A DNA stretch of 64,000 nt. It comes from a virus. Every line of letters begins with the position of its first letter. Positions within the stretch are counted from its first letter, which is position 1. The stretch is taken from the IMG/VR virus record IMGVR_UViG_3300036761_003567, positions 32,001-96,000 of that record, one strand, 5' to 3'. Below, piece by piece: positions 5,529 to 62,436 of this stretch. A program made the translations under genes and the position numbers. The notes below the pieces were generated by a model that saw only the letters and a program-made list of their open reading frames with translations, was not told the DNA's origin and ran no database searches.

Positions 5529-6878
5529 GTGGCAGACCCGACTGACCGAGACAAGCAAATCGAGGCGGCCGAGAAGGCCTACCCAGGCCCGAAGGACTTC
5601 GTCCACCTCCATTCTCATTCCGTATTCTCGCCATTGGACGGCCTTCCTGATCCTGAGGATTACGCCAAGGAATGTCAGCTCCGCGGATTCCCTGCTATGG
5701 TCCTGACGGACCACGGCAGCATGGGAGGAATTCCGGATGCCTATCTGGCTGCAAAAAGCGCGAAGGTAAAGTTCATCGCGGGCTGCGAGATCTACTTCAA
5801 CGACAAGCACCTCGAGTGGGCAGAGAAACAGAAGCTCGGTATTTCTATCGGCACCATCAAGGCGCAGGACGCAGAACTACGCGACGAATATGTCCGCAAC
5901 AGGCACGTGACCGTGCTTACGAAGAACATGGCCGGCTACAGGAACCTGGTCATGATGCTCACGAACGCCTGGGAAATCGGGCATTATTACAAGCCCAGGA
6001 TCTGGCTGGACATCATGAAGCAGCACCAGGAAGGTCTAATCATCCTGTCCGGGTGCCTGAATGGCCCTATCTGTCATTATCTCCGGAAGGATAATACGAA
6101 GAAGGCGATGGAGTACATCAAGAAGTTCAAGGACATCTGGGGAGATGACTATTACCTCGAAGTCCAAATGCCTGGTAAGGAAATCCCGGACGGCGTAAAG
6201 ACCTTCATCAAGCTCATGACCATCGCGAAGTCAGTAGGCTTCAAGGCAGTCCTGACGAACGATACGCATTACCTGAGGCGGGAGGACTTCCAGGTCCAGA
6301 AGCTCATGATGGCCATCGACCAGAAGCTGAGGGTCGATGACCCGAATCTCTTCCACGTGAATTCGGACGAGCAGTTCTATAAGACGCGGGCGGAACTAAG
6401 GCAGACTTTCCAGGAACAGGGGTACGCCTATGGCGGACACATTACCCTGAAGGACTTCGAAGCCGCCTGTGATAACGCGCTAGAGGTCGCCCAGAAATGT
6501 GAGGGCTTCAAGCCGGACACGAGCCTGAAGCTTCCGGAAGTGCCCGACGCGGATAAACAGCTCGTCGCCCTGACGCTCCAGGGGCTCCGCCGGATCAATA
6601 AGCATGAAGATGAGGTCTACGTCGCCCGTGCGAAGCGGGAACTCAAGATGATCATCGAGAAGGGCTTCAGCTCTTACTTCCTCATCACGCGGGATCTGAT
6701 CGCCCACTCAAGGAGCCTTGGCTTCGAAGTGGGGCCTGGTAGAGGCAGCGTGGGAGGCTCGCTCGTGGCGTATCTAATCCAAATAACGACGATAGACCCC
6801 ATCGTATTCAAGCTCAATTTTGAAAGGTTCATCAGCCCGTCGCGCGGCGGCAACCTCCTTAGGGTGACCATGTCATGA
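5529..6878 (+). CDS. dnaE: DNA polymerase III alpha (DnaE) piece A: PHP domain plus N-terminal palm
   Basis: FVHLHSHSVFSPLDG, LTDHG, GCEIY, YYKPRI, TNDTHY, GPGRGSVGGSLVAY, FERFISPSR; stops before PDID. Confidence 0.95.
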   Translation: MADPTDRDKQIEAAEKAYPGPKDFVHLHSHSVFSPLDGLPDPEDYAKECQLRGFPAMVLTDHGSMGGIPDAYLAAKSAKVKFIAGCEIYFNDKHLEWAEKQKLGISIGTIKAQDAELRDEYVRNRHVTVLTKNMAGYRNLVMMLTNAWEIGHYYKPRIWLDIMKQHQEGLIILSGCLNGPICHYLRKDNTKKAMEYIKKFKDIWGDDYYLEVQMPGKEIPDGVKTFIKLMTIAKSVGFKAVLTNDTHYLRREDFQVQKLMMAIDQKLRVDDPNLFHVNSDEQFYKTRAELRQTFQEQGYAYGGHITLKDFEAACDNALEVAQKCEGFKPDTSLKLPEVPDADKQLVALTLQGLRRINKHEDEVYVARAKRELKMIIEKGFSSYFLITRDLIAHSRSLGFEVGPGRGSVGGSLVAYLIQITTIDPIVFKLNFERFISPSRGGNLLRVTMS

Positions 6879-7929: not shown

Positions 7930-8308
7930 TTGGCAGAAGATCGCCGAATTCGCGCGCAAGAAAGTTGCAACGCTTTCCAAGGAGCATGCGACCCGGCTTG
8001 AATTCGAGATCAAGGAAATAGACAAACAGGGCGCGAACGACTACTGGATAAACCTGCTGAAGTCCATGCAGAAGTTCGAAGCGAACACCAACGGCCTCGT
8101 CCTTCCATTCCTCCTGGGCATCACGCCGGTCGACCCGGTCGATTGTGAATATGTTTTCAAAATTGATGAGACTGGTGAAGAAGATGATATTATGCGGCTC
8201 GTGCTAGACAATGGTAAGACAATATCGGTACCATCACGAGCGCTGATTAAGACGATAAATGGACCCATAATCGCGAAAGATTTGAAAGTTGAAGATGAGC
8301 TGACGTAA
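7922..8308 (+). CDS. dnaE: DnaE piece B: degenerate palm segment plus N-intein-like fragment
   Basis: RLEFEIKEIDKQG..Y...LLGITPVDP followed by Hint-like RLVLDNGKTISV...TINGPIIAKDLKVEDEL. Confidence 0.7.
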   Translation: MSDWQKIAEFARKKVATLSKEHATRLEFEIKEIDKQGANDYWINLLKSMQKFEANTNGLVLPFLLGITPVDPVDCEYVFKIDETGEEDDIMRLVLDNGKTISVPSRALIKTINGPIIAKDLKVEDELT

Positions 8309-9157
8309 AGTTGTCACATGTTTTAAATCTCTCTCTGTCATAACGCCAAAAGAATGGCGTTTTTTTGAGCACCACCGGCGTAATGCGGGTAATTTTCTCT
8401 TGCAAGATAGCCACATTGCGACACCCATGCGGTCTAAATTATTAGGTTTCTTGCCGGATATATATTTAGAATACTTTATTTCAATGATTAGGCGCTTATT
8501 AATCAGTAAATCTGGGACCATGAAGAATTCATTGCACTCTATTTGTAATGGTTCGTATCTTAGCGAGTGGACATCGCCTAATGATGCAAGAAGTTTTACG
8601 GCCTTCGCTTCCAGGGATGACTTAACTCTAAAAAGACCAAATCTGGTACGTATCGTTTGCACACGCGGCGATGTGGCAACGTAGTGCAAAGCGCTTATCT
8701 TTGACAAATGCTTTCTGTAATCGCCATAACGCATGTTGAGCGTGGCAATTCTTTTCCTGTTTGATTTTGGATTTTGAATAGAATACGCAACGCCGTAACG
8801 CTTCCGATGCGTCTTAATTATTCTCTCCCAAACGCCTGGTAGTTGAGTGTTGTGCGTAACGCCCAAATGTTCTTTTAGGGATTGCCGATAACGCGCATAC
8901 CCGGATTTGCTCTGCATGTAGTGCTCAGAGCCGTACCGTGACTTAAAAGTTCGCCTTCTATGGTCATCTATCTGTTTGTATATAGTCCTTTTGTCCTTAC
9001 AAATTCCATGCCTCTTCAAGGCGCGAACAACAGATGAGGTGCCGCATCCGACTCTTTCTGCTATCTGTATCTGTGAGAGGTTTTGGTCGACATACGCGTA
9101 TTTCAGATATGAAGAATTGAGCCTCTCACGCAAAGTTGACGTGGATTTTCTACCCAT
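8234..9157 (-). mobile_element. Free-standing homing endonuclease-like gene (HTH, RYGV-type repeats, TnsA-like PD-(D/E)XK nuclease) splitting dnaE
   Basis: AT-rich and antisense; SSLEAK...RYEP...VPDLLINKRLIIEIK; N-terminal LSQIQIAERVGC. Confidence 0.75.
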
Positions 9158-9313: not shown

Positions 9314-11403
9314 ATGTGGATCTCCAGCCTGCCGCACGCCCCCTTATTAGGCAGTACGCCACAAAGAAATATGGGATGGAGAATGTCTGTAGCGTAGGCC
9401 TCTGGCAGACCTACAACCCAAAGCTCGCCTTGCAGGATGCGGCTCGGGCACTCGGAGCTGACCATCACGAAATCCTGAACATAACCAAGGAGCTTCCGGA
9501 AGACTTCGATGAAATGTCCAAGGAGGACGCACTCAAGGAGTTCGACGAGCTAGCCACTTACTATAAGGCGAATCCACACATCGTCGACATGGCTTATCGG
9601 ATCGTCGGCCGCATCAAGACGCAGGGCCGGCACGCCGGAGGCCTCATCATTTCGTCCGTCCCCATCAGGGAATATGTGCCCCTGATGAAGCTCGGCGGCG
9701 TGGAGTGGACGACGGCCTGGACCGAGGGCAAGAACACGCAGCTCAGCAAATTCGGCTTCGTCAAATTCGACATGCTCGGACTCAAGACGATCCAATACAT
9801 CGCCAACGCCTTGAAGCTCATCGAACAGAACCGCGGCGTCAAGATCGATTGGGAGAAGATCCCGCTGGATGATAAGGATACGCTTGCGCTTGCGGCCAGC
9901 CTGAAGACGGATTCGACGTTCCAATTCGATACGGATCTGGCCAAGAGTATCATCCTCCGCGGCGGCGTCAAGAGCTTTAACGATCTGATGGTCTATACGT
10001 CACTCGGCCGCCCCGGCCCCATGCCGCTTATTGAGAAATACGTAGAGCGGCGTGACGATCCGAAACAGACATGGCGGAATGAAATTCATCCGAAGCTGGC
10101 GGAAATACTTGGAGAAACGTTCGGCGTCTGCGTCTATCAAGAGCAGCTCCAGCAAGTCTGGATCGACGTCTGCGGCTTCACATTCGCGGAGGCAGAAGAG
10201 GCCCGCAAGATCATCGCCAAGAAATGGCAGGACAAGCTACCTGCACTCGGCCAAAAGGTCGTGAAAGGCGCGGTCCGATTGTTGGGCGGCAAGAAGGCGG
10301 AAGAGCTCTGGCAGACCATGGTCACCTTCGGCCGCTACGCCTTCAACATGGCTCACGCGACGGCTTACACTATCATTGCCTACCGGACGCTCTGGCTGAA
10401 GACGCATTACGCCCCGGAATGGTGGGCCGCCGTCATGTCGGACTGCGGTCGGGACAGGCTCGTCCGGTACATCGGGATCGCAAAGTCGGAAGGCGTTCAA
10501 CTGGGGACCCTCGACTGCAGGACGCTCACAGAGAGCTTCACGGTCTCGGGCGACAGAGTGCTGCCAGGCCTCAACCTGGTCAAGGGCATCGGCACGTCCT
10601 CCAAGAAGCTTGCGGAGAACAATGCCGACTACAAGTCCGTAGACGAATTCATCGAGAAGAACGGGAAGGGGCGCATCGTCATGGAGCGCCTCATTAAGCT
10701 AGGCGGCTTCGATAAGATCTTCCGGAACAGGAAGACGCTCTGGCTCTGGTATCTCTGGAAGCACGCCGGCGAGAAGCAGACGAAGGACCTGGTAAAGGCC
10801 ACGTTCGCCTGGCCGGAGAATCGCGTCGTCGCCGAGAGGCAGAAGCAGATCCAGGCCTTCAGAAAGCTTTACCCCAAGAAGAAAGTGCCGCCGAAGCTGG
10901 AGAACTGGAACCCGAAGATCGATCCGACGTTCGAGGATTTCGCCAAGAAGTTCAACGAAGACTTCATGGACCGGGAAATCCTAGCCTTTGAGAAGGCTCA
11001 TCTCGGGTTCTACTGGTCATCTCCTATGAGCCAGTTCGTGCACAAGAACCTGACAATAGCCCAGGCCAAGTACTCGAATAACCTGGAATGCGTCATCGAC
11101 TCTATTACCACGAAAAAGTCCGAGAAGACCAAAAACGAATATCTGAAGCTCACGATTACGGACGGCATCGAGACGGCGCCGCTCGTCGTCTGGTCCGATG
11201 CCTTGTCTGACAAGACGAACGCCGAGGCGCTTGCCGTCGGCGGAGGCATCTCCGTAAAGGTAGCCTGGTCAGACAAGTACAGGAGCTTCTCCATAGCTTC
11301 AGGGTCCATGATCATCCCGCTCATCAAGAAGGGGCTCGAGCCAGACGCGCCGGTTCTACCTGCCCCGGATGAATTAGAGGAAGCTTATGCTGCTGACGAG
11401 TAA
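9310..11403 (+). CDS. dnaE: DnaE piece D: catalytic palm, fingers, HhH and OB domains
   Basis: (I)DVDL, GRHAGG, KFDMLGL, GVCVYQEQ, YAFNMAHATAY; the frame is closed by TGA 7 codons upstream of GTG 9316. Confidence 0.93.
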   Translation: MDVDLQPAARPLIRQYATKKYGMENVCSVGLWQTYNPKLALQDAARALGADHHEILNITKELPEDFDEMSKEDALKEFDELATYYKANPHIVDMAYRIVGRIKTQGRHAGGLIISSVPIREYVPLMKLGGVEWTTAWTEGKNTQLSKFGFVKFDMLGLKTIQYIANALKLIEQNRGVKIDWEKIPLDDKDTLALAASLKTDSTFQFDTDLAKSIILRGGVKSFNDLMVYTSLGRPGPMPLIEKYVERRDDPKQTWRNEIHPKLAEILGETFGVCVYQEQLQQVWIDVCGFTFAEAEEARKIIAKKWQDKLPALGQKVVKGAVRLLGGKKAEELWQTMVTFGRYAFNMAHATAYTIIAYRTLWLKTHYAPEWWAAVMSDCGRDRLVRYIGIAKSEGVQLGTLDCRTLTESFTVSGDRVLPGLNLVKGIGTSSKKLAENNADYKSVDEFIEKNGKGRIVMERLIKLGGFDKIFRNRKTLWLWYLWKHAGEKQTKDLVKATFAWPENRVVAERQKQIQAFRKLYPKKKVPPKLENWNPKIDPTFEDFAKKFNEDFMDREILAFEKAHLGFYWSSPMSQFVHKNLTIAQAKYSNNLECVIDSITTKKSEKTKNEYLKLTITDGIETAPLVVWSDALSDKTNAEALAVGGGISVKVAWSDKYRSFSIASGSMIIPLIKKGLEPDAPVLPAPDELEEAYAADE

Positions 11404-49961: not shown

Positions 49962-50125
49962 GTTCGAAGCCTCCGCGTACGCGCGTGACGCGTCCAGAAT
50001 CTCAAAAAGCTGATTCTCTCAAAGCTGATTCTCTCAAAAGCTGATTCTCTCAAAAGCTGATTCTCTCAAAAGCTGATTCTCTCAAAAGCTGGTCAGCGGC
50101 ATAGTTCGAAGCCTCCGCGTACGCG
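49962..50125. repeat. About 5.5 tandem 15-17-bp repeats flanked by 22-bp direct repeats
   Basis: (CTCAAAAGCTGATTCT)n at 50001-50091; GTTCGAAGCCTCCGCGTACGCG at 49962-49983 and 50104-50125. Confidence 0.95.
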
Positions 50126-50149
50126 ATGCGCTCGCCGAGAAGCGATCCG

Positions 50150-50430
50150 AAACGGGACCGGCCGCCCGCCCCCCGCCCGGGCCCCTGGGGGCGGGGGGCA
50201 GCACGCCCCCCGGGCCCGCCGGCCCGGCCCACCCCCCGCCCCCGGCGGGGCGGCGCGACCCCCACCCCCGGCCCCAGCCAAACCCCCCCCCCCACCGGGG
50301 GGACCAGCAGCACCCGGACCCCAGCCCGCCGCCGTCCCGTCTCGGCGGCGCGCCGGAGTCCGCCGCGTCCGGCCCCGTGCCACACCTCCGCGTGTCCGGC
50401 GGTGTGTCTCGGCCCAGCCGGTCCGGCAAA
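50150..50430. other. Extremely GC-rich non-coding tract with C runs and inverted repeats
   Basis: e.g. GCCCCCCGCCC...GGGCGGGGGGC and CCCCCCCCCCCACCGGGGGG. Confidence 0.8.
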
Positions 50431-50446
50431 CCAACGGAGGCTGCCA

Positions 50447-50755
50447 ATGGCAAGCGCCACCGCCGTCCGCCCCGTCGTCTCCGCCCTCGTCGGCCCCGTG
50501 TCCGCCCGCCCCCGCCCGCTCGTCCGCCCCGTCCGGCCGGACTTCCGGCTCTGCGACCTCCGCGTCCCCCCGCTGACCGAGCCCCAACTGCTGGCCCGCT
50601 ACCCGCACATGATCCCCGGCACGCTCCGGCGCGACCCCGTCGCCAACAAGAACGCGGTCGACATCCGGTGCGCGTGCGGAGCGGTCCGGATCGTGTACAC
50701 CTCGGACCTGTTCCACGTCCGGGCGTGCCGCGCCTGCAAGGCCTCCGGCAAGTAG
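50447..50755 (+). CDS. Zn-finger early protein, paralog 1
   Basis: YPHMIPGT...IRCACGAVRIVYTSDLFHVRACRACK. Confidence 0.75.
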   Translation: MASATAVRPVVSALVGPVSARPRPLVRPVRPDFRLCDLRVPPLTEPQLLARYPHMIPGTLRRDPVANKNAVDIRCACGAVRIVYTSDLFHVRACRACKASGK

Positions 50756-50895
50756 TCGCCCCGCGTGATCCCACGTGCGATCTTTGCGACCGGGCCCACC
50801 CAGCAACCTGCGCTGGGTGGGCCCATCTGGTCGTGAAACACCCCTTCCTGCTCGACCCCAGGAAGGGGAGTTCCACGTCCATTAGGAGACCAGAC

Positions 50896-51078
50896 ATGAA
50901 GCGGATCACGCCCAAGATTCGCGGGTACGCCTCGAGAGCAGATCGGGAGCGGGCCATCAAGCAGCTGTTCAGGAAGGGGTGGAATCACTTCGTCTGCTTC
51001 AGGGACGTACAGAGCGAGTTCGCGCTCCAGTACGGCCTCGCGCTCTGGGCCGGCAATTCCCCGTACATCCTGCGTTAG
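50896..51078 (+). CDS. Small early protein (paralog of 61659-61832)
   Basis: ADRERAIKQL.RKG.N.FV.F.D....FAL.Y. Confidence 0.65.
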   Translation: MKRITPKIRGYASRADRERAIKQLFRKGWNHFVCFRDVQSEFALQYGLALWAGNSPYILR

Positions 51079-52146
51079 GAGACCGAACGTGCAGAAGGCG
51101 GAGCAGACGGAGGAAGGGCGGGCGACTGCCACCCTCGGCGTGCTCGCGTTCGTGGCGATCCTGGCGATTCTGTGGCTGATCCTTTAGTGCGCTAAAGGAT
51201 CATATATTGAGGAGGGCAGGTACATGAACCGCTGGACGCTGCTCCGCGCGGCCACGCACACGTACTCGGCCAAGACCGTTGAGGTCCTGGTCGGGAAGGC
51301 GCAATTGCCCACCCTGGTGCAGGTGGGCACGATCATGAAGGACGACCGCACCGTCGCGGAGGAGTTCGCCATGGACCTCGCCATCGAGGGGCTCTACCCC
51401 TTGGACTGCGGGGACCACTGGCGCGTCTACAACATCGCGGCGTAGCCGGCGCGCAAGGCCGCCTCCCTCTCGACCCAGGGAGGCGGATTTGCTTGCCGTA
51501 TACCTCTTTTCAGGAGGGCAGACATGCCCCGCGTCAAGATCGTGGAGAGCGAGAAGCGGTTCCGGCGCGAGCCGGACCGGGCCTCGACCCTGCGCTTCTC
51601 CGTCATCGAGCGGCTGGGACCCGACGCCCAGGAACGCCGTGAGCAGGAGCCGGAGTTCCTGCAGGCCCAGGCCGAGGGACGCGCGTAAGCAAGCCCCGAC
51701 AAGACAGAGGGTTCCCACACCCCTGCACGTTCACTCGTGTCAGGAACTGGGCACTCTGGCTCTGACGTTTTGCGAGCGGCGGCCTCTTTCAGAGGGTCCC
51801 ATGCCAGAGGATTTCGCCCTCAAACCCGACCAGGTGAAGAGCCTGGCCGCGGCAATGGCCCTGTTGTACAAGATCTGCGACGGCTCGAACGAGTCCGTGC
51901 GTCAGGAAGCAGATCCGATCGCGTCGCTCTTGCGGAACTTCATCGCCAGGCACAAGTGAGGAGGGTCAGGCCATGACGAAGACCGAGCGAGTCATGGTGG
52001 CGAAGGTCGCCCGCGAGATTCGCGTCGTCATGCGCACCGTCGGCCGTCATGAGAACGGGAAGGTCAGGGTCTGGATTCGCCAGACCCTCACGCGCTGATG
52101 TGTGTCCGTTTCCACTTCTTTCTCAACTCTCTACAGGAGGTGTACC

Positions 52147-52455
52147 ATGGCGCCCGCCATCGCCGCCCGCCCGCTCGTGGAGGCCGTGAAGGTCTCCAAG
52201 CCGTTCCCGAAGGACGCCCTGTGGGCGCAGAAGAAGGGCCCGATCTCGGAGGCCCAGATCCTCGCGAAGCACCCGCACGCGATCCCCGGGACGCGCCAGT
52301 ACGACGTCGTGGCCAGGAAGTGGGCCATGACGATCCAGTGCGCCTGCGGCGCCACGCGGATCGTCTACACCTCGGACCTGCACCACGTCCGGACCTGCCG
52401 GGCGTGCAAGGCCAAGGCCGACGCCGCCAAGGTGGCCGTCGCGGTCCAGGCGTAA
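52147..52455 (+). CDS. Zn-finger early protein, paralog 2
   Basis: HPHAIPGT...IQCACGATRIVYTSDLHHVRTCRACK. Confidence 0.75.
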   Translation: MAPAIAARPLVEAVKVSKPFPKDALWAQKKGPISEAQILAKHPHAIPGTRQYDVVARKWAMTIQCACGATRIVYTSDLHHVRTCRACKAKADAAKVAVAVQA

Positions 52456-52599
52456 GCCTCTGCTCGCCATGGGACCGGCAATCTTGCCGGTCCCACAAGC
52501 CAGGAGCATCCACCCACCTGCACGTTCACTCGCGCAGGACCTGGATGCTGATCAGCCAGTCCGTCTTCCACTTTCTTGTGGCTCCGACAAGGAGGCTCT

Positions 52600-52860
52600 A
52601 TGACCACGCCCGCCCAGCCGCTCGTCGTCGCCGAGGCCGCCACCAAGGTCGCCAAGATCGCCAAGGCCCCCCGCAACGTGAACGTCACTGTCGCGGACGG
52701 GAAGCTCACCCTCGTCGTCGACCTGTCCGTCAACCTCGGACCCAGCTCGTCCGGGAAGACGAACCTCATCGCCTCCGGCACCGCGAAGGTCGCCGGCTAC
52801 GAGGGCGTGAGCTTCGGCCTCAACGTCTTCAAGAAGGCGAAGAAGGCCGACAAGAAGTAG
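52600..52860 (+). CDS. Small conserved beta-rich phage protein
   Basis: KLTLVVDLS..LGPSSSGKT.LIAS...GLNVF. Confidence 0.7.
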   Translation: MTTPAQPLVVAEAATKVAKIAKAPRNVNVTVADGKLTLVVDLSVNLGPSSSGKTNLIASGTAKVAGYEGVSFGLNVFKKAKKADKK

Positions 52861-53370
52861 GCTCATGGTCCAACGGGCGCGGCCGGACAAACGGGCGGAC
52901 CGGAGGTGACCAAACCGGGAAACCGGCGAAGGGGCCTCGCCCGCCGGCCGCGCTTTTGGGTCCTGATCCCGCGGAGCGAAAGCTCCCTAGTCTCACATGA
53001 CCAGAGGAGGGCAAATGCCCCGAAAGTGTCGATCGCCCCCGGCCAATCCGCCTGAGAGATCCGCCGTGAGCCAGAGTGCCACGGCCGGTTGAGGCACGTC
53101 AGGCACCCGAACAGGGGTAGGCGAATGCCGAGAACCCCAGAAAGGTAGAGATCGAATACTCCTTACATAGCGCCACCTCCAGAGTGCCCATATAAAGGAA
53201 CGGTTTGAAGATTTCTCGTTTCCCCGGGCAAGAGGTGGCGAACCGGTTCAGGACCGGCCTGACCGCGACGAGGACAGGACGTATAAAACCTGTCCGCTCC
53301 GGCTCCGCCAGGACACCGTTCATTCGGGTCTGGCGTCCCGTCGCGGGGAGATCGGCCCCTTTCCAGGAAG
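52860..53370 (+). ncRNA. Structured intergenic RNA cassette A
   Basis: Conserved stem 52860-52886/52944-52971 shared with cassette B; further hairpins. Confidence 0.55.
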
Positions 53371-54356
53371 GTGAAAATATGGACGAGCTGACGCAGCAGA
53401 TGCGGGACCGGCTGGTCGAGATCCTGCTGACCAGCTCGAGAGATGAGGCGATCAAGTACCTGCGCAGGCAGGGCGTCCCCGAGGACCGGGCCATCGTCTA
53501 CGTCGACGACGAGGAGAACCGGCTTCTCGCGTAGGTCGGCGCACAAATATGGGTCCGAACGATGACCGAAGTTCGGTATCCATGAAGAGAAAGGTAACCT
53601 GTTGGCAAGGACGGGGTTTCCTTGCCATTCCGAGTGCCACGGACGGGCATTGGATCGGCAATTGCCAACCTGTTCATCAAGCAACTAATTCCGACGGACG
53701 GAAAGGCTGGACGGCTGGTCAGCAACGTTCGGGCCGGAAACACGTGCGACGCGGTCGTTTCGAGAGTTTCGGGTTGTCGCGGTCTGGCAGGACCAGCCCG
53801 ACCAGCAGACCAGCACCCGGCCTCTTGGATCAATTCTTCAACTCACACGCTGACACGGACCAGTTTGGACCGGTCACGGACGCCCCGGGAAGGGGAAGTG
53901 GCCACGTTTCAGGAGGGGACATGAAGATCGTGTCAGCCACGTACGCAGGCCTCGAGCGTCCGTTCACCAAGGTCAAGGTGGCTGTCCAGTTCGAGGACGG
54001 GACGGTGGACGAAGGCACGATCCTCTTCGAGAACGAGGGTCGGGACATCGATTTCGAGGGCTTCAAGGACGGAGACCGGGTCAGCGAGGCCTTCCCCGAT
54101 CTCGATGAGGCGGACTGGGACAAGATCGAGAAGCCGGTGAAGGAGGGCATGGTGGAGTACGACGCGATCGTCGGACACTGACACAGTTTCCGGCCTTTTC
54201 AGGAGATGGGACATGCCGAAGCAGCAGGACAACTCGACCAGCGCCGCGTGGTTCAAGCGGGACCCCCGCAAGGTGGATCGGCCCGCGAAGAACTTCTTCC
54301 ACCGGCCGCTCACGGTCAAGCTGGACCATCTGGTCAGGCTCAAGCTCGTGCAGTGC

Positions 54357-54660
54357 GGCTCATGATCCAACGGGCGCGGGCTGGTATTCCGTAACGGAAG
54401 CAGGCAGGGAGTTGCCCCGCCGCCAGCCCGCGCTTTTGGGTCCTGATCCCGTGAGGCTTATGGGACGTCCGAGGACGAACGTGGACCTCCTGTTTGCTTC
54501 CAAGGCGCAGACCCAAGAAAGGAGGCCGGACCATGCGGTGAATGTGAAGGGAGGTGGCGACCCACTTCCGTCCCGTAGACCGGGCTGACCGCGACGACGC
54601 GCCAGGCCGTTAATTCGGGCTGGCCAACGGCGCCGCGAGTGGGCTGGTCTCCGATCTCTC
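54357..54660 (+). ncRNA. Structured intergenic RNA cassette B
   Basis: Stem 54357-54384/54423-54451 covaries with cassette A; shares TGACCGCGACGA and CCGTTMATTCGG. Confidence 0.55.
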
Positions 54661-57600
54661 AGTGTTATCAGGACGTCCTTACTCTTGTGTCTCTCCCGGA
54701 TCAGGAAGACCCGGGAATCTTGACGAACCGCAACTGAAATGGACACAACCCCGTGAGATCCCTTTGGGAGGAAGACAATGCGAGCCATAGACCTCAAGGT
54801 AGCCGTCCGGGTCGCGCTGCTGTACGGGATCCGCGGCTTTGCCAGGGCGGATGACACGGGCATCATCTCGCAGGACGAATCGCAGCAGGGGATGCGGGCC
54901 ATGCGCCAGTGGGAGAAGCTGCCCCTCGTCCTGCAGGGCGTGCTGGCCGTCCGGGACATGTTCGCGGCGGTGTGCTCCGATTTCAAGACATCGCCCGAGG
55001 AGTATGACGCGCTGATCCTCGAGTTCTTCGAGAAGGACTTCAGGCAGCCCCACGAAGGGGGCTAACCGAGCGGACCAACGTCGTGGACTCAATTAGGGGT
55101 TGGACCATGACCTTCGCCGAGACGCTCGCTGCAGCCATCAAGCTCCTGGGGCCAGACGACTCCGTGTGCGTCGGCGTGGACGCATGGAGCTACCCGGGCG
55201 GCGACACCCGCCTGACGTGGGACGTCTGGAGCGACAGCCGTCGCATGCACTGGTACGGATCGACGCCCGAGGCGGCACTCGCCGCCGTCCAGTCCACCTT
55301 GGACGAACTGGCGCACGACGCACATCTCCGGATCGAGGCCGTCCAGATGTAGTTCCGGATTCCCATTCCCCTCCCGTATTTCAGGAGTAGGCCCATGTTC
55401 CTGATCCGCGTGGTCGTAGCCCGTCTCTGGGCGGTCCTGACCGGCTTGGCGATCCGCAGCAAAAGCGGCAGGAACGCGTGCGCCTACTGCCGCGGGGCGG
55501 GGTGCGTGCCCGATTCGGGCCTCTTCTCCGAGGCGTGCCCGCTGTGCGGCGGAACGGGAACGTCCTCCCAGGAGGTGGCAAGGTGAAGCCGTCCGAACTC
55601 AAGGAGGGCCAGCACACCGAGATCCGGACCAACGGGGTCTTGTGTGCCCAGTTCACCTTCGAATATGGGTGGCTGGAACTCGTCATGTGGGCGGATGACC
55701 AGGTCGTCGACGAACACATCCCAGACCACCTCCTGGCTGACAAGGTCATGTCCATCCGCTTCAACTACGGGACGTCCTTCCCCCGCAATCCCGAGGGTCC
55801 GAACCCGCTCACGCCCGAGGGTGCGGACGAAGCCTGGGTGCAGATCGAGGGAGACCTGCCACAGATCAAGGAGGCAATGTGATCTATACACAACAAGCTC
55901 TTGGTGAAGTACGACGAAAAAGCGGGATCTCCCTCAAGTCGATATGTGAGAGGAACGGATGGGCCACGACCGAGGCCCTGGCGCTGGCGAAGGACGCCTC
56001 TCTGGCCACGCTGGACGAGGTCGAGCGGCGCTACCTGGACGCGGCGAAGGCCTGCGTCGGGAAGGGGCACAACATCGAGGCGTCGTACGTCCAGGAGCTG
56101 ACCGGCAACGTCATGCGGATCCTGAGACAGGAGGTGAGGGGATGAGGAACCTGGATTCATCCTCCCTGCCAGAGCCTCAATTAAGGGCGGGAGAGATCCT
56201 GATCCCATCCGGTCGCGTCGGCGACGTCGACCTGTTTTCGGCCGCCAACGACGAAGACTTCTGCTCAAGCAAGGAAGAGAAGCTCAGGGTCCGGCAGCGG
56301 AACAGGAAATCAAGAAGGGGGTGACGGGATGAAGGTCATGGTCCGACTCGACAAGCACAAGCAGAGAGCCGTCCGGGAGCAGAACTTCAGCCTGGCGATC
56401 AAGATCCGCTGCGAGATGCGCGCCCGGAGCTATTGGACCCTGTCCACCCTGCTCAGGTCGCTCCTGGGACTCGATCCCTTCGAGAACAGGCGGATTGAGA
56501 AGGCAGCCGAGGCCCTCGACCTCCTGGCGATCAGGAACGCCAGCAAGGCCGGCACCACCCACGAAGCCCTGTTCGGCGACGGCGACAACACCTACGGCGT
56601 CGACCTGGGAGATTTGAAGCTCCTGTAAGGAGATCAAGGTGAAGAAGGCAAAGTACTCTCCCATGGATGACCTGCGCCAGATCGTCAGCTGCATGGACGA
56701 GTACGGGCAGCTCGAGCACGAGGTGGAGGTCATACTCTGGAACGAGGACCCCAAGATGGGACAGGTCCAGGTGAAGCTCATCGACATGACGCTCGAGGAT
56801 GGGGGCAAGAACCCGGCCTTCACGCTCTCCTGGGCCGGGCGCTTCTGCGGCAGGCCGATGCTCCGGATCAAGGGGCCCAAGATCGACGTCCTGATCTCCC
56901 CCATCCCCAAGTTCGTGCTGGCTATCCTGATGGAGGCGTAGCCGACCCGGGAATCTTGAAGAACCAAATGGGAGGTGGCATGATCGAGACCAAGACCAGC
57001 AGCAGGGACCAGGCGGTCGAGTGGCTGGAGAAGGCCATCCCGAACTTCGCCATCCGAGTGGCTCCCGTCTACCAGGCGCTCAACTGGACCTGGTGGATGA
57101 GCCCCGTCTCGCCGGATGCGGCTGCGATCGAGCGGGCGCTGCGGGAGCTGATGACCCACGTAAGGCAGGGGAGCACCTCTGCCGCGACGGGCGGGCTGGT
57201 GGTCGAGCTGACCGAGAAGTGCGGGACGCTGGAGGCGCGGCTGTCGATGCAGGTCGATGAGGAGCGCAAGTTCACAGTGGGAGGTGCCCGATGAAGGCCT
57301 CTTGGAAACCCGAGGGAAGCCATGAGTTCCTGTTCGACTTCGAGCTGGAAGGGGGAGTGAACGACGAGCACATGTTCACGATCGCCTTCAACGCGACGCC
57401 ATTCTCCCCCGCCAAGACGCAGGGAGACCCGGACGACTGCCACGACGCGGAGGGAGGGGAGATCGAGGACCTGACGGTCTTCATCAATACCTACAGTGGC
57501 CCCATGAACGAGGCCTGCACTGTCCACGAGGTCCCTGAGTACCTGTGGCCCGCCCTGGGCTTCGACAGGAAGGTTCTGGTCCAGCAGTGCGAGGACCACG

Positions 57601-60472
57601 TCCGCGACGAGGACGAGCGGCTGGCGTCCCAGGAAGGGGACCGCAAGTGCGACGAGGCAAGGGAACGGCGCGGGGTGGAAGGATTAGGGGAAGGAGACAA
57701 GTGATGGACACGGGCTTTCTCATCGCCTGCCTGGTCTGGCACCTGCACGACAGGTTCTACGCGACCGACACCGAGGTCTATGCGAAGGCCGGAGGCGAGC
57801 TGATACGGATGGCGGACGAATGCGGAATTCCCTGGCTCAAGGTGGCGGGAATCCTCGTGATCAAGCCCACCGAGGAGGTCTCATGAAGGCCTATTTGGTC
57901 AGCGAGTGCTGGTTCAGCCGGGGCGACGTCCGGATGAACGAGTGGCGGGCGGGGATGACCTGCCTGCCGCTAGTCGGGAAGTCCTGGCGGTGGCTGTACC
58001 TCTGGGCCCTGAACACCGTCCGCTGCCTGCGGGCGCTGTTCTTCTAGGAGATTCCATGATTCCCGCCATCTCCCGTCTGGCCGACTGGTGGACGCAGGGG
58101 AAGTCCCATCTGGTGCTGGAGGCGTGGAGGCGGTCCGTCAACATCCCCCTGATCATCCCCGTGCCCCTGCGCGAGAGCGTTGCCCAGCTGGTCTCGCTCC
58201 GGGAGCGGGTGTCCGCTTGCTGGGACTTCTGCCCCGGCTCCGTCAAGGAGGTGCTGGTCACCCGTCAGCTCCCCCGCAATCAGGCCCGTCGCCACGTCGC
58301 GAAGGTCATCTCCCGCCTGCCCTACCGGCAGGTGATCCGGCTCAACCCGAAGGTCGCCTACCGCGTGGTCTGGCAGCTCATGTAACCTGACGTTTCCCGC
58401 TTCCCTTTCCCTTGGAGGTGCGTGCATGTCGAAGAAGGACATCGTGCTGGCGGCCGGGTCCCTCCCGCCCGGGGTCGTCACGGACTTCACCGTGACGAAG
58501 GACGACGTGCTGGCGATCTTCGTCAGCAGGAAGGAGCAGGAGCTCCTGGCCGAGAAGGAGGCCGCCGACAAGCAGATCGAAGCGGTCGCCGACGACATCG
58601 AGAAGGCGAGCGAGGCGCTCAAGAAGGCCGTCGAGAAGGCCGGCGAGGACCTGATCGGCAACGTCGTCAGGAAGGTCAACGAGCTGCTGAAGGAGGCCGG
58701 GCTCAGCGGGAAATTCGAGGCCCGCACGTGCCTCATGGACGAGGACGACAAGAAGAGCCTGGAGATCGGCATCTCCGGGTGCATGGGCGGGGCGAAGAAG
58801 GCCCTGACCCCCGAGGTCAGGACCGTGCTCAGCGACATCAAGAAGCTGGAGGAGAAGGGCGTGGAGGCCGAGAAGGCCGCCATCGCCGCCCGCCAGCAGC
58901 TGATGAAGCTGCCCGCGGAGGAGCGCCGCGTCCGGGCCAAGCTGGCCACCCGCGCGCTCAGCCAGTCCGACGCCGGCCGCAAGTTCCTGGAGTCCTTCGA
59001 GGGGAACCAGGAGTAGGGACCGGGCGCGCCGCAGGGAAGGGGCAACCTACCCTCCGGCGCGTACGGGCCTCACTTTTGGAGATCAAATATGGGCGATTTC
59101 GACGACTGCTCGGTTCGGGAAGCTCCAGTCCGTAAAGCTCCCCGGATGGCAGCTGCCGTGGCGGAGGATATCGACATCGGCAAGGTGTTCGTTCCCGTGG
59201 AGGATGCCAAGAAGGCTCTCAGCCTGGAGAAGGATGGGAAGGAGATCGTCTGGGCCGACAACATCAAGACCCTGACGGAGATGCTTCGCGACAGGAGCGG
59301 GATCAACAATGTCGTCGCGTTCCAGGACTGCCAGTATGGAGGGTCCAAGATCAAGGTCTACGAGCTGAATGCCCCCGTCTTCACGAATCCGCTGGACGTC
59401 AAGTCGGCAGTCAAGGGTGGCGGGAAGGCCATCCTTTACACGATTTCGGAGTCGTCCAACGACCACTTCGACGCGATCAAGAAGGTCATAGAAGACGGCA
59501 CGATCAAGTCATGCTTCAGAATCGACGAATACGTCAGGAAGTCCGGCACAGCGGCGTGCTCAACCGGCATTCGCCACGCTTTCTCCCTGCTGAAGTCCTA
59601 TGACAAGGCGAAGGCCAAGGAGGCCTCCAAGAGGCGGAAGGCGTGGATCGTCCAGCACGGACGGATCGACTGCAACGACCTGAACGAGGTCTTCGGCATT
59701 CTCATCAGGACCGTCCGTGATTACTACTCATTCGACGGCTTCCATTACTTCGTGAACTGGAACTGGCAGCGTCCGAAGGAGCGCGAAGCCATCTACAAGG
59801 CCGTCATCATCCTGTCCCGGCGCATCGACCAGCTCGTCTACGACGAATTCAGCGGAAGCAAGAAGGTCAACAAGTTCGACTTGACGTTCAGCAAGTTGAC
59901 GTTCAGCAAGTACAGCAAGTGGGTCAAGATTCCCTACACGAAGTGGGTCATCAGCCTGCGTCAGTACAGGAAGGGGCTGCTCCAGACGGAGGATGGGACG
60001 AAGACAATCCGCAAGACGGAATGGAGGCCCGTGGACAAAAGCGAAGTCCACGATTCGCGTGTTGTAAACCGCGGACCGAACGAGTGGGTCAAGGTGAAGA
60101 AGCAGGTGAAGGTCAGCGGGAAGCCCGCCCGTGAGTTTGGCAAGTGGCTGGACAGCGAGATCCGCGCGTGCATCCAGTATCTCCGGTCCAAGAAGGCCAA
60201 GAAGGAGGGAAAGAGATGAAGACCCAGAAGATTCCGCCACGCATCCAGATCGCCGCGGTCATCATGCTCCAGAAGCCGGACAAGGGCTGGAAGTCAGGCG
60301 ACAACCCCGAGATCGACTCGCTCGCGGAAGACTTCGCGGCAGACGACCTCAACGTCGATGACATCCTCGTCAAGAAGGGCAGCAGGAAGGTTGAGTTCCT
60401 CGTGTCGTGGAGCCTGCCCAGTTCGTTCAACGGGTTCAAGATCGTCAACCTGGAGGCGATGAAGGGGAGCAA

Positions 60473-61869: not shown

Positions 61870-62436
61870 ATGGACGAGATGGAAGCGTTGCAGGCGCAGC
61901 TCGAGAAGAATCTGGGCCTCGGCCAGAGGCTGATCGACAAGCCGGCCAAGCAGACGCCGAAGGCCGACGTGCCGGTGCTGGTCGTCGCCGAGGGCCAGAC
62001 CCAAGTCAAGCCGGTCAAGCCGGTGAAGACTCCGGGCCTCGCCATCGTCAAGGCGATCGTCGACAAGAACAAGAAGCTCAAGCCCAAGTCAGAGATCAAT
62101 GCGGCCTCGGCGAGGGCGATGAAGAGCAGGAACCCGGACGGGACGAAGAAGCCCAGAATCCCGACGCTCAAGACCAAGGGGCCGGACGAGGCAGCCCTGC
62201 TCAAGAAGTACCCGCACGCGAAGGCGGGCACGCTCTACTACCAGCCCGCCGCCAAGAAGTGGACCATCGAGATCGCCTGCGCCAAGTGCAAGGCGGCGCG
62301 GATGGTACATACCTCAGACCTCTTCCAGGTCAAGCTGTGCGTAGCCTGCAAGGGCGCGAAGCCGACCAAGCAGACGGTATCCACGGAGCAGAAGGCCAAG
62401 AACATCGAGGCCCTCGCCAAGGAGATCCTGGGGTGA
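61870..62436 (+). CDS. Zn-finger early protein, paralog 3, with Lys/Pro-rich extension
   Basis: KYPHAKAGT...IACAKCKAARMVHTSDLFQVKLCVACK. Confidence 0.75.
   Translation: MDEMEALQAQLEKNLGLGQRLIDKPAKQTPKADVPVLVVAEGQTQVKPVKPVKTPGLAIVKAIVDKNKKLKPKSEINAASARAMKSRNPDGTKKPRIPTLKTKGPDEAALLKKYPHAKAGTLYYQPAAKKWTIEIACAKCKAARMVHTSDLFQVKLCVACKGAKPTKQTVSTEQKAKNIEALAKEILG

Follow-up and report, generated by a model that had tools for sequence, protein, structure and literature searches.

Paired hairpin cassettes with conserved arms and exchangeable apices at gene ends of an uncultured phage: candidate terminators or attenuators of an early gene array

The DNA analyzed here is a stretch of 64,000 nucleotides (referred to below as the window), which corresponds to bases 32001-96000 of the linear 107-kb IMG/VR virus record IMGVR_UViG_3300036761_003567 (29% complete according to CheckV). 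Our subject is a pair of related hairpin-forming elements, cassette A and cassette B, which lie 1.4 kb apart on the + strand, each at the end of a small gene. The G+C content of the window steps up near position 50,000 from about 55% to 61-71%, and beyond this point nearly all plausible genes are small + strand open reading frames (ORFs) with a G+C content at third codon positions (GC3) of 0.85-0.99. For those ORFs of this region that were tested, no meaningful Pfam or PHROGs match was obtained. Within positions 52600-54800, three stretches (52861-53379, 53535-53921, 54366-54777) do not show any codon-phase G+C bias and are therefore considered non-coding. A blastn search of the INPHARED phage records yielded 0 matches, no close relative was found among deposited phages, and our literature search did not retrieve an earlier description of such cassettes.

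Cassette A (52860..52971, + strand) consists of a 5' arm (52860-52886), a 57-nt apex (52887-52943) and a 3' arm (52944-52971). Cassette B (54357..54451, + strand) is built in the same order from a 5' arm (54357-54384), a 38-nt apex (54385-54422) and a 3' arm (54423-54451). When the two copies were compared, we found that a 23-nt 5' arm sequence differs at a single base and that a 22-nt 3' arm sequence is identical, and such a match was not observed in any shuffled window. The apices are mutually unrelated, and each cassette folds as a single long hairpin with a free energy of -61.3 kcal/mol for cassette A (z -2.0) and of -58.7 kcal/mol for cassette B (z -5.6). The original prediction, which had been made from the letters of the window, had described two cassettes at these positions with unrelated but self-structured inserts, and both statements were confirmed. 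BLAST searches of the 107-kb record detected A and B as the only copies, which is not the pattern of dispersed repeats (REP/BIME, MITE) with their many genome-wide copies. Rfam 15 did not return a match at gathering score in the 64-kb window, and when E-values up to 5 were accepted for positions 50000-58000, three chance-level matches (E 0.9-4.7) were obtained, none of them inside the cassettes. ARAGORN did not detect tRNA or tmRNA, and exact-motif scans of IMG/VR with the 3' arm, the 5' arm and a 20-nt block described below gave chance matches in coding DNA only. A covariance model (R1) was built from the five distinct cassette alleles, as had been suggested as a check, but its search for further homologues in 282 kb of DNA (the window, the remainder of the 107-kb record and 46 loci) recovered only the two known sites.

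The 86-aa protein encoded upstream of cassette A has homologues in metagenomes, and their alignment pulled 44 metagenome loci. Nine of these (L006-L014) are close relatives in which the same two cassette sites are present, and these relatives amount to a handful of independent lineages. Searches of IMG/VR for related loci with single proteins did not find any, and the alignment of the 86-aa protein retrieved two distant IMG/VR loci, both without the cassette. A search of the GTDB genomes yielded four distantly related homologues of the 86-aa gene, located on contigs of Omnitrophota and Chloroflexota metagenome-assembled genomes (MAGs); none of them is accompanied by a cassette, and no host call was obtainable from them.

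Comparison of the close relatives indicated that the two sites are allelic. At the A site, the 112-nt form was found in six sequences and a 73-nt form with an unrelated 19-nt apex in three relatives (L010, L011, L013). In L014, a deletion has taken the hairpin together with the 3' arm, and the 5' arm now runs directly into the small GNRA hairpin that comes next. The B site is occupied by the 95-nt form or, in L007, by a 65-nt form, in which the same arms flank a 13-bp GC stem with an 8-nt loop followed by UUUU (-42.7 kcal/mol, z -6.5). This 65-nt allele is the canonical, textbook form of an intrinsic terminator. Four different apices and one null allele were thus observed at the two sites. The four apices are unrelated in sequence, and each of them extends the helix above the shared stem, so that pairing is kept in every allele. 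The 8-nt loop of L007 and the loss of the hairpin in L014 indicate that what had been called the payload of the cassette is dispensable and allelic. Of the proposed scaffold with an exchangeable payload, the fixed arms and the exchangeable apex are therefore supported, but a functional payload or a processed small RNA is not. Six relatives (L006, L008, L010-L013) carry a 26-nt insert just after cassette A (e.g., L008 5387-5412), which is absent from the window; it repeats part of the 5' arm (a run ending GGGCGCGG) and resembles what would be left of a second, tandem cassette.

Next to these apices, the shared stem itself varies little. Across the five distinct alleles, 19 of its 22 pairs are invariant; one pair shows a compensatory change (C:G to G:C), one changes from G:C to G:U, and one, which is G:C in cassette A, is broken (A·C) in all B-site alleles. 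The swapped pair, the G:U pair and a C to T exchange of a bulged base are structure-neutral. The covariation observed in the shared stem was equaled by 54 of 500 shuffles and is weak. The covarying closing stem of the original prediction is thus reduced to one compensatory pair and to upper helices that differ and yet pair, and these apex helices are the stronger evidence for a selected hairpin, since four unrelated apices extend the helix. The uncompensated arm difference of cassette B (G to A) creates the TGA stop of the 50-aa ORF, the last two codons of which also lie in the 5' arm. The first base of cassette A is the last base of the TAG that ends the 86-aa gene. A start of each cassette at an upstream stop codon holds for the window but not for all relatives: in L008, L009 and L012, 33 nt with another hairpin separate the stop from the A cassette, and in L014 the separation is 2 nt, so that the distances range from 0 to 33 nt. 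No two alleles have the same sequence directly upstream of the arms, and in most of them this sequence is coding. Since this sequence is not shared, there is no common promoter belonging to the cassettes, and the conserved promoter that would characterize an independent small-RNA gene was not found.

We consider it somewhat better than an even chance that the cassettes function as paralogous Rho-independent terminator or attenuator hairpins of the early + strand gene array. In all four alleles, a G+C-rich stem-loop abuts a U-rich tract: the upper hairpin extends over 52877-52953 in cassette A, followed by the U tract 52954-52957, and over 54374-54433 in cassette B, followed by the U tract 54434-54437 (both + strand). 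For the upper hairpins of the four alleles, free energies of -46.2, -39.0, -23.0 and -23.3 kcal/mol were calculated, and each hairpin directly abuts UUUU. The tail score was 3.28, and the hairpin-plus-tail value d was above zero for the four alleles (0.6, 5.4, 16.7, 1.9). The formula for d reportedly goes back to d'Aubenton-Carafa in 1990. Both cassettes lie on the coding strand downstream of a gene, and they share with Rho-independent terminators this position after a stop codon, the G+C-rich hairpin with its U tract, the positive score and, in L007, the canonical size. Other gene-closing hairpins with a U run followed by GG were found at 59008-59078, after a 196-aa gene, and in L006 before an inserted gene. 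In several distant phages (e.g., L027, L024, L034), a hairpin with a U-rich tail likewise comes after the homologue of the 86-aa gene. When the 107-kb record was searched for a phage-encoded transcription machinery, neither a sigma-70 region 2 match nor a single-subunit RNA polymerase was found, although the latter is a weak negative, since the control search did not match in any control genome. These data suggest that the host RNA polymerase is the likely reader of the cassettes. It would pass the stop codon of the small gene and transcribe the G+C-rich stem that abuts UUUU; folding of this stem would release the transcript, and the remaining 3' hairpin would protect the upstream mRNA. The apex would not play a part in termination and could be long or short, branched, or replaced altogether, and this freedom would explain why it differs between the two sites and among related phages.

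Several observations do not fit easily with termination. The U tract comprises only four U and is followed by GGG, and the cassettes were missed by a simple terminator scan that requires 5 T in 8. Two of the cassette alleles are branched hairpins of 60-77 nt, unlike ordinary Rho-independent terminators, and the 27-nt arms, which continue past the U tract, are preserved to the letter across sites and lineages. A terminator does not need letter-for-letter conservation of such arms and of a 57-nt apex, and yet the cassettes keep them. No sigma-70-like promoter was found in the downstream intergenic regions, where the consensus may not be that of the host, and an efficient terminator would consequently need read-through or antitermination for expression of the later genes. 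The hairpin at 59008-59078 (-45.9 kcal/mol, z -5.5) has its start within the final codons of the 196-aa gene and its end at UUUU. GGAG comes directly after it, and the following start codon lies 11 nt behind the hairpin, which leaves no room for a promoter. The same design can therefore not be a full stop at this place. A scan of the record for hairpins before T runs proved too permissive with long windows and was used only to locate a hairpin at 59013. In addition, the cassettes form islands of sequence identity. In L008 and L012, cassette A is 100% identical over 112 nt, compared with 77% for the 86-aa gene and 55-68% for the next 119 nt; in L014, cassette B is 96-100% identical, compared with 75% for the 50-aa gene and 73% for the next 99 nt. 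By our own arithmetic, the probability that neutral divergence at the rate of the flanks leaves such identity is about 1e-11 to 1e-13. Thus, either strong constraint acts on the whole cassette, or the cassette is exchanged in one piece. Modules of 25-120 nt make up the region in a fine mosaic, so that recent exchange would be sufficient to explain the identity islands, although the apex may also be under selection.

The arms would come into play in RNA that has passed the terminator. The U tract and the 14 nt following it pair with the 17 nt preceding the GC stem, and the outer helix of the full form comprises 24-28 pairs with small bulges. This corresponds to the roughly two turns (at least 20 bp) of mostly regular duplex that characterize an RNase III site. 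Since the arms lie beyond the U tract, extension of the stem to 24-28 bp is possible only in read-through RNA. A helix of this length would be long enough for a double-strand-specific RNase, and the read-through RNA could be cut in a manner similar to lambda tI/sib. In the lambda system, the read-through transcript is a substrate of RNase III and the terminated RNA is not. The cassettes resemble tI/sib in that a terminator is combined with pairing partners that only the read-through transcript gains, which leads to a longer duplex. They differ in that two copies lie inside an early gene array instead of one beyond int. An RNase III gene was not found in the 107-kb record. The reference list of PMC5371410 includes a paper on lambda tI/sib retroregulation (Plunkett and Echols 1989), and this article names T7 and T3 among the RNase III targets.

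Both cassettes are followed by a long non-coding region with a second shared module. In region A, a variable middle part (52972..53231, + strand, non-coding by codon-phase G+C), which is a mosaic of small hairpin modules in the relatives, precedes module 2 (53232..53349, + strand). This module comprises the 9-nt 3' strand of a long-range stem, a 20-nt block (53252-53271) and a three-way structure with an 8-bp closing stem, inside which a hairpin with the loop TTCATT is located (53317-53326, + strand). In region B (54452..54777, + strand, also non-coding by codon-phase G+C), module 2 (54551..54653, + strand) comprises a local 8-bp hairpin, the 20-nt block (54578-54597) and a long irregular hairpin with the loop TTAATT (54608-54617, + strand); a further block (54701-54749), just before the next gene, is kept in all relatives. 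The original prediction of a second common element after both cassettes, with the 20-nt block followed by the TTCATT or TTAATT hairpin, was correct. The stems and hairpins of module 2 show compensatory changes among the relatives, and we suggest that this module is a separate 5'-leader element of the next gene. The window contains four occurrences of the 10-nt pattern that the UUNAYU loop forms with its closing pairs (51728-51737, 52523-52532, 53317-53326, 54608-54617, + strand), compared with 0.5 expected occurrences. Across the 107-kb record, the + strand has no match besides these four, and the - strand has a single one, attributed to chance. They are located 63-170 nt upstream of start codons; the 6-nt loops are closed by C-G and cap long irregular hairpins with different stems. 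The UUNAYU hairpins are kept in the relatives, where the third loop base is free (C, T, A, G). Candidate roles include a leader stabilizer, a protein site and a nut-like site. For the middle intergenic region (53535-53921), RNAalifold did not give net covariation support. A resemblance to a T7-like promoter at 53154-53172 was dropped because it occurs in a single copy, and so was a sigma-70 promoter composed of the 20-nt block and a TATAAA loop, since the TAT is deleted in L006 and the promoter scan did not find it. In each long intergenic region, a short ORF is also present behind a strong Shine-Dalgarno site (53015-53092 and 54533-54541); this ORF comprises 25 codons in A and reads ATG-CGG-stop in B. 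The ribosome site and the ATG of these ORFs are kept in all relatives, the spacer varies, and indels in the A ORF (12 and 6 nt) are in frame; the ORFs could encode a micro-peptide or serve as leader ORF or ribosome-loading site. Finally, a 22-nt block occurs just upstream of two ribosome sites (54708-54729 and 56944-56965, 21 of 22 bases identical). It is kept in the relatives even with a different downstream gene and is unconvincing as a sigma-70 promoter.

The length of the outer helix also bears on an alternative to which we give a small but appreciable chance, namely that the cassettes are pure processing or stabilizer hairpins. A long early RNA would be cut as in T7 by RNase III of the host or by another double-strand-specific RNase, the cistrons would be separated with a protective 3' hairpin left behind, and the U tract would be incidental or belong to a U-rich leader style. 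This idea would account for the 24-28 pairs with their small bulges and for arms that are conserved beyond the U tract although a terminator does not need them, and it agrees with the lack of promoter-like sites in the following intergenic regions, with the recurrence of U-rich tracts before Shine-Dalgarno sites in this DNA and with the hairpin that sits 11 nt before a start codon (59008-59078). It is more difficult to reconcile with the G to A exchange of cassette B, which breaks a lower-stem pair without compensation, with the bare allele of L007, which has the exact form of a terminator, and with L014, which manages without the hairpin; moreover, cleavage would depend on the host, since the phage fragment lacks an RNase III gene. 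The early RNase III sites of T7 carry a characteristic internal loop and no U tract. They are similar to the cassettes in being paralogous intercistronic hairpins, alike in sequence, between small early genes, which leave a 3' hairpin on the upstream message if cut, but the cassette stem abuts UUUU and has one lower-stem pair broken in B. A rather small chance is given to the more elaborate possibility that the invariant arms form an RNA scaffold which a factor of the phage or of the host recognizes by its sequence. The cassette would then be a switch in an antitermination cascade, which either terminates or, in read-through RNA, is cut in a sib-like manner, with the UUNAYU hairpins as nut-like sites and the apices as functional payloads. 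The processed small RNA of the original prediction, in which the arms are the scaffold and the apex is a payload (decoy, guide or protein-binding RNA) kept per site and lineage, appears very unlikely to us. Each apex allele is indeed unchanged across lineages the flanks of which are about 25% apart, the apices are self-structured, and the apex of A contains a Shine-Dalgarno-like run. Nevertheless, one allele has only an 8-nt loop and another genome lacks the hairpin, no conserved promoter precedes the arms, neither an Rfam family nor further copies in 282 kb of related DNA or in the IMG/VR scans were found, and a search for complements of the inserts did not detect any longer than 13 nt in the 107-kb record. 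The 5' arm is complementary over 12 nt to the start region at 55099, but this match was discarded since L009 does not preserve it, and the identity islands are also explicable by fine mosaic recombination across the region.

Function at the level of DNA, which we regard as highly improbable, would make the cassette a recombination site (attC-like or a modular linker), a miniature inverted-repeat element or a hairpin signal in single-stranded DNA, with the arms kept as crossover or recognition sites and the apex as the exchanged part. Inverted arms with a variable center at gene ends, exact replacement of the apex within the stem, the identity islands, the partial second copy of the 5' arm after cassette A in six relatives and the variable gene content near the sites are compatible with this explanation. 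As in integron attC sites, the cassette is an imperfect inverted repeat with a variable center at the 3' end of a gene, and a heptamer of the 5' arm fits the inverse core RYYYAAC. However, the paired 3' site reads T-TTGGGT, with T where the GTTRRRY core requires G, and neither an integrase nor a cassette array accompanies the sites. A tyrosine recombinase (Phage_integrase) match was not obtained in the 107-kb record, an absence that is not final for a record of this completeness. There are only two copies and none elsewhere in the searched DNA, target-site duplications are lacking, and in the relatives, genes were gained and lost at ribosome-site repeats and within the intergenic region, not at the arms. 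The start-associated sequences and extended inverted repeats of Cluster K actinobacteriophages occur in many copies just upstream of start codons. Like the cassettes, these are short conserved inverted repeats with variable spacing in intergenic DNA of high-GC phages, but there is no sequence likeness, and here two copies lie at gene ends. We find it scarcely plausible that cassette and module 2 form one large structured non-coding RNA (280-490 nt) in two paralogous copies. Four modules follow each other in the same order in both intergenic regions (hairpin, Shine-Dalgarno site with short ORF, 9-nt motif, 20-nt block with UUNAYU hairpin), both regions are non-coding by codon-phase G+C, and the hairpins of module 2 show compensatory changes. 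On the other hand, a complete 114-aa gene separates cassette and module 2 in L006 and L010, module 2 is retained in L014 although the cassette is missing, the middle parts have been replaced one module at a time, the 9-nt motif has its pairing partner upstream in A but downstream in B, and an Rfam match is lacking. The inserted gene, the L014 allele, the switch in pairing of the 9-nt motif and the non-paralogous flanking genes indicate that the intergenic regions consist of independent modules in the same order.

The 86-aa gene that ends where cassette A begins (52600..52860, + strand, GC3 0.98) has homologues in many uncultured phages and on MAG contigs. The AlphaFold2 model of its protein had a pLDDT of 66.5, and a Foldseek search against the PDB did not yield a match. 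The stop codon of the 50-aa gene (54213..54365, + strand) lies inside the 5' arm of cassette B. Duplication of a gene together with its terminator was rejected as origin of the two copies, since the genes flanking A and B are not paralogous. A group I or group II intron, which the stop codon at the left edge had suggested, was also rejected, since Rfam gave no match and the ORFs on either side occur separately in relatives as independent genes. In L006 (1338-1681) and at the same place in L010, the 114-aa gene mentioned above interrupts intergenic region A near its center as a moron-like insertion, between the equivalents of window positions 53058 and 53059. It is preceded by a 13-bp GC hairpin with UUUUU and has its own ribosome site. 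Another 86-aa gene (53921-54181) is absent in L007, L008, L009 and L014, and the joint lies within a repeated U-rich ribosome-site motif (TTTCAGGAG...ATG), which precedes several genes. The position of this joint suggests gene shuffling by recombination between translation-start regions.

Three further features were noted elsewhere in the window. At 50005-50100, there is a tandem array of 16-nt units, which is followed by a nearly pure G+C tract with long C runs (50150-50430). Array and tract coincide exactly with the change in G+C content and gene style and may be an origin, terminus or partition-type site. Three paralogous small proteins (50447-50755, 52147-52455, 61870-62436) have a Cys-rich, zinc-ribbon-like domain in common at their C-termini (blastp E 3e-28, 1e-15, 6e-17) but no Pfam or PHROG family match. 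A DnaE-like DNA polymerase is split into two ORFs (5529-6878 and 9316-11403), which match consecutive parts of one PHROG profile (42-439 and 448-1029). The DNA of about 2.4 kb between them includes a stretch of low G+C content (43.5%) and an ORF on the - strand (8234-9157) and is probably a mobile insertion.

Most likely, the cassettes are a modest variation on an ordinary signal. If our preferred interpretation as terminators or attenuators is correct, these hairpins would split an early phage operon into units, and arms that pair only in read-through RNA would represent a lambda sib design, which is rarely recognized in uncultured phages. The natural alleles, in which the tip is long, short or absent and the arms are fixed, constitute a ready series for studying the effect of apex size on termination. 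For annotation, about 1.3 kb of non-coding DNA within 2.2 kb is to be read as small, independently exchanged regulatory hairpin modules and not as one large RNA.

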